Origin: an uncultured Anaerolineae bacterium
GTDB taxonomy: Bacteria > Chloroflexota > Anaerolineae > Aggregatilineales > UBA3940
Direction of reading: 5' to 3'
Assembly: GCA_964390105.1 (NCBI GenBank)
Contig: CAYMGV010000001.1
Location: forward strand, 132,088 to 196,087
Length of the DNA stretch: 64,000 bases
In this document: positions 2,816 to 51,110 of the stretch, piece by piece
How positions within the stretch are numbered: the first letter of the stretch is position 1
Layout: each line of letters begins with the position of its first letter
Made by a program: the position numbers and the translations under genes
Notes under the pieces: generated by a model
The model's database searches: none
Told to the model about the DNA's origin: nothing
Seen by the model: only the letters and a program-made list of their open reading frames with translations

Positions 2816-2890
2816 TGGCTGGGGGAAAGGGACTCGAACCCCTACTGGCGGAGCCAGAATCCGCAGTTCTGCCAATTAAACTATCCCCCA
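2816..2890 (-). tRNA. tRNA-Gln (anticodon CUG), CCA encoded
   Basis: Hand-folded. Acceptor TGGGGGA/TCCCCCA has the U1-A72 pair typical of bacterial tRNA-Gln. Anticodon stem GCGGA/TCCGC with loop TTCTGGC. T arm contains GGTTCGAGTCC. The 3' end is GCCA. Confidence 0.9.
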
Positions 2891-16917: not shown

Positions 16918-16989
16918 TGGCGATGACTGGATTCGAACCAGTAACCTACGGCTTATGAGTCCGCCGCTCTGCCATTGAGCTACATCGCC
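16918..16989 (-). tRNA. tRNA with CAU anticodon (elongator Met, or Ile2 if lysidine-modified); CCA not encoded
   Basis: Hand-folded. Acceptor GGCGATG/CATCGCC, D stem GCTC/GAGC, anticodon loop CTCATAA, T arm ACTGG-TTCGAAT-CCAGT. A G1-C72 pair argues against an initiator. Confidence 0.85.
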
Positions 16990-23353: not shown

Positions 23354-23389
23354 AAAAACGATGCGAGGGCATCCCCGCATCGTTTTTTA
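23352..23389. terminator. Bidirectional intrinsic terminator between the 811-aa gene and tRNA-Leu
   Basis: AAAAAAA-CGATGCG...CGCATCG-TTTTTT. Confidence 0.75.
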
Positions 23390-23392
23390 CAG

Positions 23393-23474
23393 TGCCCTGG
23401 GTGGGACTCGAACCCACACGCCCAAAGGGCATAGGCCCTCAACCTACCGCGTATGCCAATTCCGCCACCAGGGC
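23393..23474 (-). tRNA. tRNA-Leu (anticodon GAG), class II long variable arm; CCA not encoded
   Basis: Acceptor GCCCTGG/CCAGGGC, anticodon stem GTAGG/CCTAT with loop TTGAGGG, variable arm GCCCTTTGGGCGT, T arm GTGGG-TTCGAGT-CCCAC. Confidence 0.9.
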
Positions 23475-23490
23475 TTGCAAACGAATTGCA

Positions 23491-23518
23491 ATTATAACAC
23501 GCACGCCGGGCCTGTCAA
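23491..23518 (-). promoter_or_regulatory. Sigma70-like promoter for tRNA-Leu
   Basis: Reverse strand reads TTGACA, 16 nt, TATAAT. The -10 ends 16 nt before the tRNA 5' end. Confidence 0.65.
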
Positions 23519-23588
23519 TGCAATTTTGCAGTCACAACGGTACACTAGAGTTAATCGTCAGGCGTGAGTGTGGAGCAACTATAACGAC

Positions 23589-25297: not shown

Positions 25298-25311
25298 CCT
25301 GTGCCTAAAAA

Positions 25312-25353
25312 TAAAAAGGCATGGGGCAGAGCCATTCTGCCTCACGCCTTTTC
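25312..25353. terminator. Bidirectional terminator between convergent plsX and rel
   Basis: 13-bp stem AGGCATGGGGCAG/CTGCCTCACGCCT with 2 mismatches, flanked by an A-run and a T-run. Confidence 0.6.
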
Positions 25354-25365
25354 TGTCTGCAACTA

Positions 25366-25404
25366 TCAACAATTGAGCCTTGTTTTCAACAATCTTTCAA
25401 CAAT
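25366..25404. repeat. Three direct copies of TCAACAAT in the rel/plsX intergenic region
   Basis: Copies start at 25366, 25386 and 25397. Confidence 0.5.
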
Positions 25405-25419
25405 TTATTAATACCGGCT

Positions 25420-30846: not shown

Positions 30847-31686
30847 ATGAGACGTAACCGGAAGATCAGGCCAATCCAGGTAATTGTTAAAGGAATCGGT
30901 GTGGTGACTGCCGCAGGCATACTGACCCACAGTGCCAGCGCTGCCCAGCATCTGATTCACTACGAAATGCTGCCCGCTGATGACGTTAGGCAGCTTGGCC
31001 TGTTTTATGGAACACCCAGCCGGGAGATATTTGCCGTCAACGAAGAAGACTGGCGCTCCAGTAATTTACTCACCATACCCTTTGATGTCGCCGAGGGCTA
31101 TGTCGGTGCATCCATCCCACCAGGTGCCTACACCATCCGTCCGGGCGACACACTGTACAGCATCGCAGCACGCAGTAAAACGCCCATCGTGATGATCGCG
31201 GCATTTAACGAGATCGAAAATGTTAACGAATTGGAAGCTGGCAGCGAGATCGTCATCCCTAACGAGATCGAACTCCGGCAGATGGAATCAGGAGAGTACC
31301 CCTTACCCGGTGCCCCCTCCCCCACTGTCTATGACGGCAAACAGATTATCGTCGCTCTTTCGCAGCAGCGGACATACGCTTTTGAAGATGGCAAGCTGGT
31401 GCGGTTTTTCCTTGTGTCAACCGGTTTATCGAAAACACCAACCATCCAGGGCAACTATGAGATTTACCGGCAGTTGGAAACGCGCCACATGACTGGCCCC
31501 GGCTACGATCTGCCTGATGTACCCTATGTCAGTTATTTTATTGCTGGCTACGCTTTTCATGGTACCTACTGGCATGAAAATTTCGGGACGCCGATGAGCC
31601 ATGGTTGCGTTAATATGGTGACAGATGAAGCACGCTGGCTCTATGAGTGGGCTGAGATCGGCACCCCGGTCCGCGTGATTCCCTGA
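30847..31686 (+). CDS. LysM-domain L,D-transpeptidase (YkuD family)
   Basis: LysM domain: YTIRPGDTLYSIAARSKTP...LEAGSEIVIP. YkuD catalytic region: YAFHGTYWHENFGTPMSHGCVNM. Confidence 0.85.
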   Translation: MRRNRKIRPIQVIVKGIGVVTAAGILTHSASAAQHLIHYEMLPADDVRQLGLFYGTPSREIFAVNEEDWRSSNLLTIPFDVAEGYVGASIPPGAYTIRPGDTLYSIAARSKTPIVMIAAFNEIENVNELEAGSEIVIPNEIELRQMESGEYPLPGAPSPTVYDGKQIIVALSQQRTYAFEDGKLVRFFLVSTGLSKTPTIQGNYEIYRQLETRHMTGPGYDLPDVPYVSYFIAGYAFHGTYWHENFGTPMSHGCVNMVTDEARWLYEWAEIGTPVRVIP

Positions 31687-31721
31687 CCCCACACGCCAAG
31701 GCAAGGTGTACTGCTGGTAAC

Positions 31722-31950
31722 AGCGGGGATCGACAGGGGGCGAAAGCGGCGACATGCCCCTCTCGACTCGCCGGAGAAGGAGTAAGTCGCCATATTTAGC
31801 GATATGGTGTTGCCCGATCGCCCGGAGAGGGCATTGCCTACTGAGCATAGCGAAGTAGGTCAGTATATCGCTAAGTACTGGAACTAGTTTTCGGCAGCTT
31901 GCTGGCGAAATGTCCCTGAGCCGGGCGCGAAGGGGTAGTTCCAGTACCTG
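31722..31950. ncRNA. Candidate structured RNA of unknown class (hairpin-rich, GC-rich intergenic segment); strand unresolved
   Basis: Four non-overlapping hairpins. (1) 31730-31740/31757-31766, 9 bp plus 1 mismatch. (2) 31788-31795/31802-31809. (3) CCTACT/AGTAGG at 31837-31842/31854-31859. (4) Perfect 12-bp GTACTGGAACTA/TAGTTCCAGTAC at 31875-31886/31936-31947, enclosing two smaller GC-rich hairpins. The segment lies upstream of the consensus promoter at 32011, so it is not that gene's leader. No convincing ORF. Confidence 0.35.
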
Positions 31951-32010
31951 TTAATATCATGATTTACTCATTTTTGACCTAACGCCTTCACACAAACGCC
32001 ACAGACGGCT

Positions 32011-32039
32011 TTGACAGCATCATAGGGAAGACGTATAAT
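32011..32039 (+). promoter_or_regulatory. Consensus sigma70 promoter for the S1-domain gene
   Basis: TTGACA (32011-32016), exactly 17 nt, TATAAT (32034-32039). Confidence 0.75.
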
Positions 32040-32041
32040 CC

Positions 32042-32093
32042 AGCCCGGTATTCGGGCTTTGTTTTGCTTGTTCCCCTTTTTAAAAGCCCGGTA
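32042..32093 (+). promoter_or_regulatory. Leader element: duplicated AGCCCGGTA flanking the complementary CGGGCT and a U-rich tract
   Basis: AGCCCGGTA occurs at 32042-32050 and 32085-32093. CGGGCT at 32053-32058 can pair with either copy. TTTGTTTTGCTTGTT follows the first hairpin, and the SD AGGAG follows the second copy. Confidence 0.3.
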
Positions 32094-32104
32094 GTAGGAG
32101 AAGA

Positions 32105-32809: not shown

Positions 32810-32849
32810 CGACGACTGTTCTGTATGTTGCTGCGCGTCTGCGGAATCA

Positions 32850-32880
32850 AAGAGGGGTAGTTCACACTCCCCCTCTTTTC
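32850..32880 (+). terminator. Intrinsic terminator after the S1-domain gene
   Basis: AGAGGGG...CCCCCTCT hairpin followed by TTTTC. Confidence 0.6.
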
Positions 32881-32929
32881 CTCGTTTATTCACAGGTTGC
32901 AGAGCCTGGCATCACACTGTATCGCTTCT

Positions 32930-41015: not shown

Positions 41016-42240
41016 TTTGTTGGGCGTCCCGGGGTCAAGAAAGTCCAGATACTTCCGGGTAGTTGCTGACGTCCCGTGCATTGCGGCAGCCTGGGTTTCA
41101 TGAACACTGCCAGTGCTGCTCAGACTCGACTTTATCCATTTTTGAGCAGAGAGCAGGGGCAGATTACGCATAAACCCAGAAATTCGTTCGAAATAGGTGA
41201 AGTCTGGGTCAGACTACAGACCCCATCCTATTTATTCGGGTTCCGCGATTGGTGTTGATGTTCCCTATGGTGGCGTTCTGAACAGATACATTATCGTCTC
41301 CTGCTGCTGCCGGTAGTTCGAGCGTAAACCCGGGCCGGTCTCGGCTTCTGACCGATGTCTTATGTTCATCATAACTCACTTTCCGTGAGTGTCTACCAAA
41401 TGGATAAAGTCGAGTCAGAGTCACTGCCACGAAATAGTGCCGGAAGCTGTGAGGAGTAATTGATATCCCTTTCTCAGCGATCTCTCGGCGTTCCTTGGGT
41501 GATAAGGCCATGCTCATTACGTGATCGATGATATTTGAGGCAGTCCAGCGTAAAATCGAGAGGAGGCTGTTACTGGCTCGTTTGTCATGGCGAGCAAAGA
41601 GTATCGATTGTGGGGTTGATTTGTAATCCCTGCTGCGTGCATTGAGATAGCGGCTTAACGCCTGTGTTGTTTGAATAGTTAGTGTAACCGCTTCTCCACC
41701 TACCGGTAACAGCATGCTTTCACCGGGGTTGAAGTTACTCTCACGCAGGCTCACGACGCCCCCTACCCTGAGGCCGGTCTCCGCAAGAACGAGTACAAAG
41801 GCTCGATCACGCAGATTGCGATATGTGGTGCGCGCGCTGCCTGGATCAGGTTGTGGTGACCAGTTGATCGCGAAAGCGTGGATTTTTTCGATTACATCAA
41901 GTGGCAAATCTGGGAGATTATGCTGTTTTGGCCTGCGCAGTTGGGTAATTGCTTCTTCTATTGCATGGTTATCTATCGGTAGTGATTCTGTGTTCGCAAG
42001 AAACTCGACGTAACGAAGCAGGGCACGGGAGTAAACATGCTCAGTCTCGACAGAAGCATTATTCTGGAGGTGGAGCAAAAATGTTTCAACATCAGTGATA
42101 TCAATGATGACTATGTTTTTATTAGTGTGATGGACCCAGTCTGCAAACTGTCTCACAGCCCGCGCATAAACATCGGCAGTCGAGGCCGAAAACTCGGCTG
42201 CCAACCAGCGTTCATAGGTATCAAGATGCCAGCCCGCCAT
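40992..42240 (-). pseudogene. Tyrosine recombinase (phage-integrase family) interrupted by a 290-bp insertion
   Basis: The track ORF 41209..42240 has a SAM-like N-domain, ETGLRVGG (Arg) and HSFRH (His-x-x-Arg), then a nonsense tail. The missing end ...SSTGSVHETQAAAMHGTSATTRKYLDFL... (His and Tyr region) is encoded on the same strand at 41119..40992. Joining 42240..41415 to 41119..40992 gives 954 nt, which is 317 codons plus a stop, in frame. Confidence 0.85.
41125..41414. mobile_element. MITE-like non-autonomous insertion (290 bp) with 17-bp perfect TIRs and a 5-bp target-site duplication
   Basis: TIRs are CTCGACTTTATCCATTT (41125-41141) and AAATGGATAAAGTCGAG (41398-41414). Direct repeat TCAGA lies at 41120-41124 and 41415-41419. 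There is no transposase-like ORF inside. Family unassigned. Confidence 0.8.
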
Positions 42241-50901: not shown

Positions 50902-51010
50902 CCGATCTCACCCTCAATTGTTTCATTGTTCAGTTTGCAGATAAAAGTAATGAGTTTGCAGGGGTTTGGCAACCCCTCGTATAGGCTCATTTGTTCTACT
51001 ACTATACTCA

Positions 51011-51039
51011 CGAGGCCTAGTTCTCGCAAGAGCAACCGA
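51011..51039 (-). promoter_or_regulatory. Sigma70-like promoter for gyrA
   Basis: Reverse strand reads TTGCGA, 17 nt, TATAGT. It lies about 105 nt upstream of the gyrA ATG. The leader contains the hairpin AGGGGTT/AACCCCT. Confidence 0.55.
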
Positions 51040-51054
51040 CAATCCAGCAGGTGA

Positions 51055-51090
51055 ATCAAAATGGCCCCACCCTGGTTGGGCAAGGCCATT
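51055..51090 (-). terminator. Terminator-like hairpin after rpoC
   Basis: AATGGCC...GGCCATT stem, followed on the minus strand by TTTTGATT. Confidence 0.5.
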
Positions 51091-51110
51091 CGATTTATGC
51101 AAGGCGTGAG

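Follow-up and report, generated by a model that had tools for sequence, protein, structure and literature searches.

A Hairpin-Rich Intergenic Segment of an Uncultured Anaerolineae Bacterium: Possible Mobile Non-Coding Cassette at a dif-like Site

Introduction

In an uncultured Anaerolineae bacterium, the 418 nt between a gene for a short L,D-transpeptidase (LDT) and an S1-domain gene (31687–32104) contain a dense series of hairpins, which raises the question of whether this DNA specifies a structured RNA or is conserved for another reason. An earlier note had proposed a candidate structured RNA of unknown class at 31700–31960. The observation itself, i.e., that of a conserved hairpin-rich stretch, is confirmed here. 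We put the probability at about one half that the core of the segment is a mobile non-coding cassette at a dif-like site and, hence, DNA-level material and not a dedicated RNA gene. Throughout, “the window” is the whole stretch of 64,000 nt that was analysed, and all coordinates given without an L-number refer to it.

The Locus and Its Neighbouring Genes

The features of the locus are the following.

30847–31686, + strand: LDT gene, LysM-YkuD L,D-transpeptidase of the short one-LysM type (Pfam YkuD 6e-24, LysM 1e-10)
31687–31784, + strand: genus-specific spacer with small hairpins in predicted folds (ACGCC/GGUGU, GCUG-GUAA-CAGC, and the GCGAAAGC mini-hairpin at 31740–31747)
31785–31795, + strand: left arm AGTCGCCATAT of a 28-bp site, 10/11 to the left-arm consensus AGTCGCTATAT, which derives from the intact sites of L099 and L098
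31796–31947, + strand: 152-nt non-coding cassette, inserted precisely where the left arm meets the central region, with two three-way-junction domains and three tandem-GA hairpins
31948–31970, + strand: central region CTGTTA (31948–31953), right arm ATATCATGATT (31954–31964; 10/11 to consensus) and outer extension to 31970
32011–32068, + strand: promoter of the S1-domain gene (32011–32039), followed by a hairpin and T tract (32042–32068); context, outside the element

As the earlier note had read it, the S1-domain gene possesses a perfect TTGACA-17-TATAAT promoter, which is conserved in L001, L002, L003, L016–L020, and L097. The segment is not the leader of the S1 gene, because relatives that lack it keep the identical, perfect promoter directly upstream of S1. 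The hairpins that had been described are all in place, including the perfect 12-bp stem of 31875–31886 with 31936–31947, which in the predicted fold closes a three-way junction whose inner hairpins lie at 31889–31910 and 31913–31935, and the GCGAAAGC element; likewise present is a 140-aa antisense ORF (31426–31848), for which there is no Pfam match. The extent originally given to the segment, 31700–31960, describes a hairpin-dense region that is real, but the conserved unit runs on to about 31970 and the 5′ third (31687–31780) is not conserved beyond the genus. In the spacer, the first 25 nt are recognisable in the sister species (L013); no alignment with the distant relative L003 and no significant similarity to the cassette were obtained for it.

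Searches for RNA Families, Proteins, Signals, and Further Copies

No known RNA class fits the segment, as had been surmised: the intergenic region is without a match at the gathering threshold of Rfam 15, and a permissive scan returned sub-threshold noise, with GA-cis as the best hit (18.3 bits versus a gathering threshold of 34.7) plus two implausible eukaryotic or viral families. The same scan of the L003 homologue gave noise only. When 5.8 billion clusters were searched at the protein level with the six-frame translation of 31680–31975, nothing was retrieved at E ≤ 10; by this query, the cassette holds no ORF with homologues, and replication or phage functions were not found. At the scan criteria, there is no promoter-like site upstream of the segment on either strand, and a + strand promoter based on TAATAT was discarded, with no consistent −35 element on direct reading. 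Direct reading also revealed no terminator that would delimit an RNA gene; the outermost helix, P0 (see below), was rejected as an intrinsic terminator, since it is trailed by a U tract in the window (U5) and in L001 (U4) only.

A second copy of the cassette is found neither in the 64-kb window (BLASTN) nor in about 1–2 Mb of loci. In phage and plasmid collections, BLASTN with the region yielded nothing or chance matches, and a metagenome scan with a conserved promoter/hairpin 27-mer gave no match. Viral-collection scans with patterns of the cassette and the site were empty in two cases and gave 16 matches in a third, a chance-level number confined to AT-rich contigs. Searching a genome collection with the S1 protein led to unrelated phyla only, and a metagenome scan with the S1 alignment mostly to generic S1 proteins.

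Folding and Compensatory Conservation of the Hairpins

On the + strand, the region 31687–31960 has a minimum free energy of −118.9 kcal/mol (z = −4.80; 0/200 shuffles fold as well), and on the − strand a z of −3.51; the conserved core 31776–31975 reaches −82.5 kcal/mol on the + strand (z = −5.38), and z = −6.9 with DNA parameters. The window has 19 intergenic regions that measure 100 nt or more; of these, the one between LDT and S1 has the most extreme fold, with tRNA- and terminator-bearing regions going down to z of about −4. The predicted fold comprises two domains and three hairpins of a particular kind.

31793–31877, + strand: domain A; closing stem 31793–31805 with 31865–31877, enclosing H_a and H_b, each with a tandem G.A internal loop
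31811–31833, 31836–31860, and 31911–31937, + strand: tandem-GA hairpins H_a, H_b, and H_c, respectively, from a hairpin scan
31875–31947, + strand: domain B; perfect 12-bp stem P1 (31875–31886/31936–31947), enclosing P2 (31889–31910, CUUG loop) and H_c (tandem G.A)

The three hairpins have a common architecture—stem, GA, 2 bp, loop, 2 bp, GA, stem—which occurs at 0.034 per kb in the 2.0 Mb scanned on both strands, where this locus is the only one with two such hairpins within 200 nt. GUAA, GAAA, and CUUG loops are present in the segment. The closing stem of domain A is the inverted repeat I3 (13 nt, 92% complementary), the 3′ arm of P1, AGTTCCAGTAC, doubles as a pseudo-left arm adjoining the central region, and the outer extension GAGTAAGTCG (31780–31789) pairs with 31961–31970 to form P0, which is contained in both the core fold and the consensus fold. 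Internal or tandem duplication was not detected by TRF, and alignments of domain A with domain B and of the 5′ third with the cassette are not significant.

A homologous cassette exists in L003 (nhmmer E = 5.6e-12). The consensus fold of the window and L003 contains 55 pairs at −51.8 kcal/mol on the + strand, about ten of them G-U, versus 43 pairs at −38.6 kcal/mol on the − strand; hence, the + strand folds better in the consensus as it does in the core. All 55 consensus pairs are paired in both sequences (100%) and 16 are changed on both sides, compared with 0–2 double-changed pairs in slid-partner controls; this covariation is that of two sequences, from which the consensus structure was itself derived. 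In L003, the domain A stem is kept with 3 compensatory pairs and P1 with compensatory pairs 7/14, while P0 shows one compensatory G-C to A-U change. The inner pairs of H_b go from GC/GC in the window to AC/GU in L003, and the tandem G.A of H_a is replaced there by Watson-Crick GC/GC. The inner hairpin blocks GGGCATTGCCTACT and AAGTAGGTC are conserved, whereas the terminal arms differ strongly. Of the structured-RNA proposal, it stands that compensatory changes maintain the helices in a distant relative. What is conserved is not a single coherent RNA locus of 260 nt but the 152-nt cassette between the left arm and the centre of a 28-bp 11-6-11 site. Tandem G.A pairs, GNRA-type and CUUG loops, wobble pairs, and strand asymmetry are RNA-like features that are also compatible with folded single-stranded DNA.

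A 28-bp Site with 11-6-11 Architecture

Joining the split halves 31785–31795 and 31948–31964 gives the window's site as AGTCGCCATAT-CTGTTA-ATATCATGATT. The consensus, AGTCGCTATAT-N6-ATATCATGACT, consists of two 11-bp, partly symmetric arms and a 6-bp centre. Intact sites are present in L099 (AGTCGCTATAT-GAGTTA-ATATCATGACT), L098, L096, and L100–L102; in that of L099, the left arm and the reverse-complemented right arm agree at 8/11 positions. The arms of eight sites agree with the consensus, built from these same loci, at 17–22 of 22 positions, and TAATATCA is invariant in 8/8 related sites, with centres varying between GAGTTA, GAGTAA, CTGCTA, CTCGCA, CCGTTA, and CTGTTA. A search of 2.15 Mb on both strands at a threshold of at least 17/22 arm positions returned eight sites, all of which lie in LDT/S1-neighbourhood loci, each locus having a single site, as does the 64-kb window; none was found in about 90 unrelated loci. 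The recombination-type site is located downstream of the short LDT gene in several lineages (13–60 nt 3′ of the short-LDT homologues in each of L098, L099, L100, and L103).

The intact 11-6-11 site has the layout by which the dif/Xer core site is defined (PMC5357621). Its arms are conserved among related species—with the consensus taken from the same loci—and its central region varies. Its resemblance to the canonical dif consensus is loose, the GC skew across 64 kb has no clear inflection at 31.8 kb, and the published Dehalococcoides dif predictions, which are weak ones, were rejected as a match, being dissimilar to the site. The window also encodes a possible partner enzyme.

41209–42240, − strand: gene for a divergent Xer-like tyrosine recombinase, 9.3 kb from the site (Pfam Phage_int_SAM_4 and Phage_integrase, borderline scores)

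Its product has XerA, XerD, and XerC as best NCBIfam matches, all far under the cut-offs, and may be regarded as a candidate partner of the site. It was rejected as a syntenic partner, the gene being absent from that position in L096.

Insertion, Relationships, and Mobility of the Cassette

Deletion of 31796–31947 restores, on direct reading, an 11-6-11 site with arms at 10/11 and 10/11 to the consensus. The cassette meets the border precisely in the window and to within 1 nt in L003, where it fills the same site at another genomic position, between PD40 and LDT genes; in L096, the PD40/LDT locus is present with an empty site. The insert is likewise absent from L002, L016–L018, and L097.

The relationships of the cassette disagree with the host phylogeny. 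The last 30 nt of the cassette are identical (30/30) between L001, the sister species, and the distant relative L003, the S1 genes of the two sharing 64% nucleotide identity; between L001 and the window, the same 30 nt are 68% identical, as against 89% for the S1 gene and 86.5% for the flanking intergenic region. Thus, the L001 cassette end is nearer to that of L003, while the opposite holds for the host genes.

In Logan assemblies (k=31), same-strain contigs end at 31821 and begin at 31918, i.e., 30 nt inside 31792 and 31947. Given the value of k, these breaks place graph branch points at 31792 and 31947, the ends of the cassette. A contig of L001 begins exactly 30 nt before the pseudo-arm/central border, and L101 and L102 contigs, which serve as a positive control for k=31 breaks, end exactly 30 nt into the tandem repeat known from L100. 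The branch points show that the cassette occurs in more than one sequence context. Phylogenetic discordance, branch points at both ends, and a site that is found both filled and empty together speak for mobility. An inversion switch between the 12-bp arms was considered and dismissed, as the contig break points do not fit it.

The half-sites of the cassette itself are at 4–7/11 to the consensus (window pseudo-left 6/11 and pseudo-right 6/11; L003 pseudo-right 4/11), and matches of at least 7/11 arise by chance at 24 per kb. Weak inverted similarity extends past P1 into the site, as seen in minus-strand self-hits in L003 (E = 0.00025–0.028).

An Integrase-Less Element at the Same Border and the Proposed Mechanism

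L100 carries a unit of 2,897 bp. Its genes are those for an HTH repressor and a rolling-circle Rep (Pfam REP_ORF2-G2P; PHROG 9.6e-11), besides three small ORFs; it has none for a recombinase. The unit is integrated in tandem, with the repeat beginning at the first base of the central region, i.e., at the left-arm/central border, and its two copies do not differ at any of the 1,090 comparable nt. Because this integrase-less Rep element sits tandemly at the same arm/central border, the site is suggested to be dif-like (Xer-type). The attP region of L100 was also considered as a folded hairpin, and set aside as unstructured (z = −0.8).

In the mechanism that we propose on the basis of these sequence comparisons, the 28-bp site beside the short LDT gene serves as an integration site for elements without a recombinase of their own. 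Xer-type recombinases probably act on it, it may be the chromosomal dif, and the cassette would move by the Xer route, in keeping with its location at the left-arm/central border, the position of strand exchange by such enzymes. The cassette would consist of two forked hairpins, each closed by 12–13-bp inverted arms, and would be kept as a foldable unit, which is exchanged between lineages and found in more than one context; its folding presumably matters in the single-stranded DNA form. P0 would arise from the dyad symmetry of the site itself, the domain A stem and P1 from the inverted, half-site-like arms of the cassette, and the remaining hairpins would be its interior.

In a more specific and rather speculative version, which we consider doubtful, the cassette would be a “miniature IMEX” of non-autonomous type, which accompanies single-stranded-DNA (inovirus-like, rolling-circle) elements of the Anaerolineae as a satellite. 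Its body of about 150 nt would be made up entirely of folded-DNA signals, comprising a CTXphi-like forked-hairpin attachment site and perhaps origin or packaging hairpins, and host Xer-type recombinases would insert, exchange, and array it at the chromosomal dif. If true, this would jointly account for the selection for foldability, the strand asymmetry, the site specificity, and the horizontal exchange.

Alternative Explanations

The segment might, instead, be a true + strand structured RNA, namely a small RNA about 190 nt in length or else the long 3′ UTR of the LDT mRNA. P0 would close it, its two three-way-junction domains with their tandem-G.A hairpins would serve for protein binding or transcript stability, and the 28-bp “site” would be no more than the conserved base of the RNA. 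We regard this as unlikely, yet as an explanation to be taken seriously in view of the strong fold (z = −4.8 and −5.4), the 16 compensatory pairs with zero broken pairs between the window and L003, the preference for the + strand (55 versus 43 pairs; −51.8 versus −38.6 kcal/mol) with some ten G-U pairs, three clustered tandem-G.A hairpins that are unique in the 2 Mb scanned, the GUAA, GAAA, and CUUG loops, and the U5 (window) or U4 (L001) run after P0. However, conserved arms with a variable 6-nt centre in the “loop” of a hairpin are the pattern of a recombination site, for which an RNA hairpin offers no explanation, and the border of the cassette coincides to the nucleotide with that of an integrated replicon that has no integrase. 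A + strand promoter upstream is lacking, the compact 36-nt form in L098 and L099 is not followed by a U tract, and in L003 the tandem G.A of H_a has given way to Watson-Crick pairs. Given the insertion at the site border, the discordance with the host phylogeny, the multiple contexts indicated by assembly-graph branches at the cassette ends, the lack of a delimiting promoter or terminator, and features that suit single-stranded DNA as well, an RNA-level role is no longer the simplest reading. A transcript from the other strand is a highly improbable variant: minus-strand TGATATTA, found in 7/8 sites, would be an extended −10 promoter and the hairpins the leader of a transcript. In L003 and L096, where the PD40 gene is situated downstream on the minus strand, this transcript would have the sense orientation of the PD40 operon, and in the window it would be antisense to the LDT gene. 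The predicted start at the outer end of P1 agrees with this, but there is no −35 element at a conserved spacing, the hexamer TATTAA is without the conserved final T, the minus strand folds worse and retains fewer pairs, and the only course of the transcript in L098, L099, and the window would be antisense into a gene.

Small mobile elements of another type also have to be considered. Correia elements of Neisseria and bcr1 of the Bacillus cereus group are 100–160 nt long, carry terminal inverted repeats with TA-type target duplication, form strong hairpins with compensatory changes among copies, reside in intergenic regions and 3′ UTRs, and reach tens to hundreds of copies, dispersed over many sites. 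The cassette resembles them in size, inverted repeats, TA-type flanks, hairpins with compensatory changes, and intergenic location; in contrast to them, each instance of it that was seen lies in the same 28-bp site and its terminal arms are the least conserved part. It is improbable, in our estimation, that one or two MITEs, moved by a TA-duplicating transposase, landed by chance in a TA-rich conserved hairpin. Both domains are indeed TA-flanked with inverted arms in the window (TA-TTTAGCGATAT...ATATCGCTAAG-TA and TA-CTGGAACTA...TAGTTCCAG-TA), the empty site GTCGC-TATA-TGAG of L098 and L099 compares with a filled GTCGT-TATA-...-TATA-TGAG in L003, and several contexts occur in assembly graphs. 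Yet TA or TATA flanks fit microhomology at a recombination border equally well, and divergent terminal arms around a conserved interior are the opposite of what transposase recognition predicts. The same 28-bp site has been hit in three or four lineages, which favours site-specific over TA-random insertion; all instances are in that site, with no dispersed copy in 64 kb or about 1–2 Mb of loci, and no related transposase was seen. Still less probable is a vertically inherited, functionless intergenic expansion by slippage or duplication, with palindromic arms kept complementary by DNA-level template switching. The insert is missing in most relatives (L002, L016–L018, L096, L097), the 5′ third is genus-specific, and one architecture in three hairpins hints at internal duplication. 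Against this, such duplication is not significant at the sequence level, the L001 and L003 cassette ends are 30/30 identical despite host S1 genes of 64% nucleotide identity, the inner hairpin blocks GGGCATTGCCTACT and AAGTAGGTC are conserved, and the assembly graph branches at the cassette ends.

Relation to Known Systems

Known IMEXs that are integrated at dif include CTXphi, VGJphi, TLCphi, and the gonococcal genetic island (PMC5357621, PMC3089051). The L100 element is like these in its 28-bp 11-6-11 target, the lack of its own recombinase, integration at the arm/central border, tandem arrays, and degenerate element half-sites (PMC5357621, PMC3089051). The window's cassette, however, is 152 nt long and encodes nothing, whereas known IMEXs are phages, satellites, and islands of several kb or more; furthermore, their hosts are Proteobacteria, while the present one belongs to the Chloroflexota, with Xer action on the Anaerolineae site being putative.

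CTXphi integrates by way of its folded single-stranded attP(+), a forked hairpin of about 150 nt, in which two inverted dif-like sites pair as a stem (PMC3089051). Domain B is likewise a forked hairpin, with a 3′ arm that borders directly on the central region and the right arm. Its P1 stem has 12–13 bp versus a full 28-bp duplex, pairing across centre and right arm is, on direct reading, only about 50–60%, the coding IMEX at this site (L100) has an unstructured attP region, and there is no phage genome beside the cassette. The pdif modules of Acinetobacter plasmids (PMC7399989) are, as the cassette is, discrete units bounded by Xer-type sites and common to unrelated backbones; they are gene-bearing, with complete inverted sites, and located on plasmids, whereas the cassette is gene-less and its bounding sites are hybrid or degenerate. 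With the large non-coding RNAs of Rfam motif families, the segment shares multiple helices, GNRA-type loops, tandem G.A, compensatory changes, and a narrow phylogenetic range. It differs from them in being without transcription signals, inside a recombination-type site, phylogenetically discordant, and without an Rfam match at threshold.

Several observations count against the mobile-cassette reading. An element of 152 nt is without means of replication; the IMEX known at the site, that of L100, is not hairpin-rich, and further copies of the cassette are inferred from graph branches and not seen; the attP-like half-sites are poor; the covariation is that of two sequences; and the strand bias as well as the tandem G.A, GNRA, and CUUG motifs favour RNA.

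Implications

If the RNA reading were true, the segment would represent a novel structured RNA, about 190 nt long and confined to a few Anaerolineae. If the mobile-cassette reading is true, the site would be a candidate dif-type site for the Anaerolineae (Chloroflexota), a phylum for which the published dif predictions found are the weak Dehalococcoides ones only, and integrase-less rolling-circle elements would exploit such a site outside the Proteobacteria. The cassette itself would be an unusually small, gene-less passenger, the hairpins of which are preserved by compensatory change, and possibly a minimal substrate for Xer-mediated integration of folded DNA. For the discovery of RNA motifs, the locus would serve as a warning that intergenic covariation together with low folding energy can stem from mobile, hairpin-forming DNA at a recombination site.

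Intergenic segment and predicted fold

The hairpin-rich DNA lies between a LysM-YkuD L,D-transpeptidase (LDT) gene and an S1-domain (S1) gene, whose products have their homologues in Chloroflexota/Anaerolineae and which belong to the conserved gene order RelA, M23 peptidase, PD40, LDT, S1 and Ser/Thr kinase. The features reported in the earlier note were all recovered, namely the 418-nt gap, the perfect S1 promoter, the GNRA-like element, the 12-bp stem (P1), which closes a three-way junction in the predicted fold, and a 140-aa antisense ORF, for which Pfam gave no hit.

Features of the window
2819-2890, minus strand: tRNA gene
16918-16989, minus strand: tRNA gene
30847-31686: LysM-YkuD transpeptidase gene
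31740-31747: GNRA-like element GCGAAAGC
31785-31795 and 31948-31964: split halves of a 28-bp site
31793-31805/31865-31877: stem of domain A, with hairpins H_a and H_b
31875-31886/31936-31947: perfect 12-bp stem P1 of domain B, with hairpins P2 and H_c
32011-32039: perfect TTGACA-17-TATAAT promoter
32105/32111-32809: S1-domain gene
41209-42240, minus strand: divergent Xer-like tyrosine recombinase gene, 9.3 kb from the site

As the earlier note had suspected, the segment matches no known RNA class: Rfam gave no match there and, at the gathering threshold, only the two tRNA genes in the whole window. Folding of 31687-31960 yields -118.9 kcal/mol and z = -4.8 on the plus strand, and z = -3.5 on the minus strand; this is the most extreme z among 19 intergenic regions of the window, by a margin that is not wide. 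Four other regions (23354-23567, 25298-25419, 32810-32929 and 50902-51110), whose z on one strand ranges from about -3.6 to about -4.1, are probably intergene terminators. Three hairpins within 127 nt, H_a, H_b and H_c, share one plus-strand design (stem, GA, 2 bp, loop, 2 bp, GA, stem); such tandem-GA hairpins occur at 0.034 per kb in 2.0 Mb scanned, with no other pair at most 200 nt apart. The 5' third (31687-31784), which carries GUAA and GCGAAAGC hairpins, is genus-specific: no homologue was found beyond the genus, and similarity to the 152-nt cassette described below was not significant.

The view that the segment is not the S1 leader holds. The S1 promoter is kept in perfect form by all Anaerolineae relatives examined, and in three of them (L002, L003, L016) it ends an LDT-S1 spacer of only about 90-155 nt; this marks the hairpin-rich DNA as an addition. 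At 32042-32068, 3 nt past the S1 -10 box, starts a hairpin that, with its T tract, resembles a terminator, so that transcripts from this promoter would be devoid of its 5' arm, while upstream read-through would carry the entire hairpin; 32053-32060 may alternatively pair with 32083-32090.

Structural conservation in a distant homologue

Among all fetched loci, nhmmer returned a homologue (E = 5.6e-12), which aligns with 31781-31970 of the window. It is on the 537-kb JGI contig L003; the S1 proteins of L003 and the window share 56% identity. There it lies between PD40 and LDT, upstream of LDT. In the ~970-nt intergenic region concerned, an ACAGGC...GCCTGT hairpin bordered by runs of A and of T (L003:1240-1270) resembles a bidirectional terminator; it separates the site that carries the cassette from the long LDT gene.

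The RNAalifold consensus of the two sequences comprises 55 pairs, all formed in both. Sixteen of these are changed on both sides, including seven in P1, three in the domain A stem, two in the inner H_b stem and one in P0, the helix closing the unit, as against 0-2 in partner-slid controls; the minus-strand consensus is weaker (43 pairs, nine compensatory). The covariation that the earlier note proposed to look for was seen, in two sequences from which the structure itself was derived, and within that frame it is good evidence of maintained foldability.

A putative dif-like site split by a 152-nt cassette

A profile of the window and L003 sequences gave short matches in three related loci (L099, L098, L096), and L097 was added by inspection. 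In these loci the two ends of the unit conserved in the window adjoin one another (e.g., GGTAAGTCGCTATATGAGTTAATATCATGACTTACT in L099), immediately after the stop codon that ends a short LDT paralogue. The site has an 11-6-11 layout, AGTCGCTATAT, GAGTTA and ATATCATGACT; the left arm and the right arm's reverse complement agree at 8/11 positions. Eight sites show conserved arms, an invariant TAATATCA and a variable 6-bp centre; a scan of 2.15 Mb at >=17/22 arm matches returned only these eight.

Sites and element in related loci
L096:8341-8368: 28-bp site
L097:1519-1550: 28-bp site
L098:6886-6913: 28-bp site
L099:6828-6855: 28-bp site, AGTCGCTATAT-N6-ATATCATGACT
L100:4846-4873: 28-bp site
L100:4857-8843: exact tandem copies of a 2,897-bp element

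The cassette occupies 31796-31947 (152 nt) and is made up of two forked hairpins, domains A and B. Deleting it from the window restores AGTCGCCATAT, CTGTTA and ATATCATGATT, with correct spacing and 10/11 matches in each arm. In L003 the insert meets that arm/central border to within 1 nt, the ambiguity stemming from a TATA microhomology, and L096, with the gene order of L003, carries an empty site. P0 arises from the site's own dyad symmetry. The pseudo-left arm of the window, AGTTCCAGTAC, has only 6/11 matches, and neither of the hybrid sites makes a good complete one.

In L100 (GCA_964451875.1, CAYVJV010000002.1), a 2,897-bp unit fills the site that follows the short LDT gene. It carries genes for an HTH repressor and for a rolling-circle replication initiator (Pfam REP_ORF2-G2P; PHROG "rolling circle DNA replication initiation", 9.6e-11), as well as three small ORFs, and it lacks any recombinase or integrase gene. 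The unit is repeated in tandem, the repeat opening with the first base of the site's centre, and the copies are identical across all 1,090 comparable bases. The unit has the same appearance as the integrative mobile elements exploiting Xer (IMEXs) VGJphi and TLCphi at dif, and it is a candidate IMEX in Chloroflexota.

Arms plus a centre in 11-6-11 spacing define dif and other Xer-type sites (PMC5357621). Because of this architecture and the integrase-less, IMEX-like L100 element, we read the site as a putative dif-like, Xer-type recombination site, with identity as the chromosomal dif only a candidate assignment; GC skew over 64 kb was uninformative on this point, and the sequence is unlike the (weak) dif predictions that Kono et al. 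made for Dehalococcoides. The recombinase encoded at 41209-42240 best matches XerA, XerD and XerC models, far under their cut-offs, and no solved structure matched its sequence. Its gene is missing from the corresponding position in L096 and not syntenic there; any link to the site is conjecture.

Signs of mobility

The sole close relative, the species of SRR28370423 (amino-acid identity 93% for S1, 88% for LDT), has contigs broken on either side of the segment, as have the same-strain contigs of SRR7048222. Since these Logan assemblies use k=31 with every 31-mer distinct, a contig extends exactly 30 nt into any stretch that also occurs in a second context. The contigs from the same strain stop at 31821 and start at 31918, implying branch points at 31792 (the cassette start plus the arm's 4-nt ATAT) and 31947 (the pseudo-arm/central border). 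The sister-species contig L001 likewise starts exactly 30 nt ahead of that border; as a control, two contigs (L101, L102) terminate exactly 30 nt inside the L100 tandem repeat. The first 30 nt of L001, the end of its cassette, are 30/30 identical to L003 968-997 and 68% identical to the window, opposite to S1 nucleotide identity (64% with L003, 89% with the window); the intergenic flanks of L001 and the window share 86.5% identity. L103, a contig from a further lineage in which the gene order is shared, also breaks 115 nt past the LDT stop; in its tail are ACTCGCTATTT, which is left-arm-like, and a block similar to H_b and the domain A stem of the window.

Logan contigs from four samples (L014 end, L015 start, L001 start, L013 end, L101/L102 ends, L103 end) all have breaks at most ~120 nt past the end of the transpeptidase gene, exactly 30 nt inside the repeat wherever its boundary is known. 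L013 instead stops 25 nt past the stop codon, suggesting extra strain-level heterogeneity in that spacer.

Interpretation

We favour, at a probability of about 0.5, the reading that the conserved core is a cassette of non-coding DNA that forms hairpins and undergoes integration and exchange at the dif-like site; it is also the most economical one. CTXphi, in which a forked hairpin of ~150 nt acts as attachment site (PMC3089051), offers a precedent. A genuine plus-strand RNA, serving as a 3' UTR element or small RNA, is an unlikely alternative; the RNA-like features would suit folded single-stranded DNA equally, and with DNA parameters the core folds at z = -6.9. A MITE that duplicates TA is more doubtful still, and an inert expansion is the least probable of these readings.

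The cassette reading has its weak points. Half-sites derived from the cassette are poor, matching at 4-7/11, a level frequent by chance; the attP of the coding L100 element at the same site is unstructured, unlike the hairpin-rich cassette; replication of a 152-nt element has no explanation; and further copies are inferred rather than seen. Apart from the cassette, the 28-bp site beside short LDT genes in several Anaerolineae lineages is a candidate dif-type site for the class.
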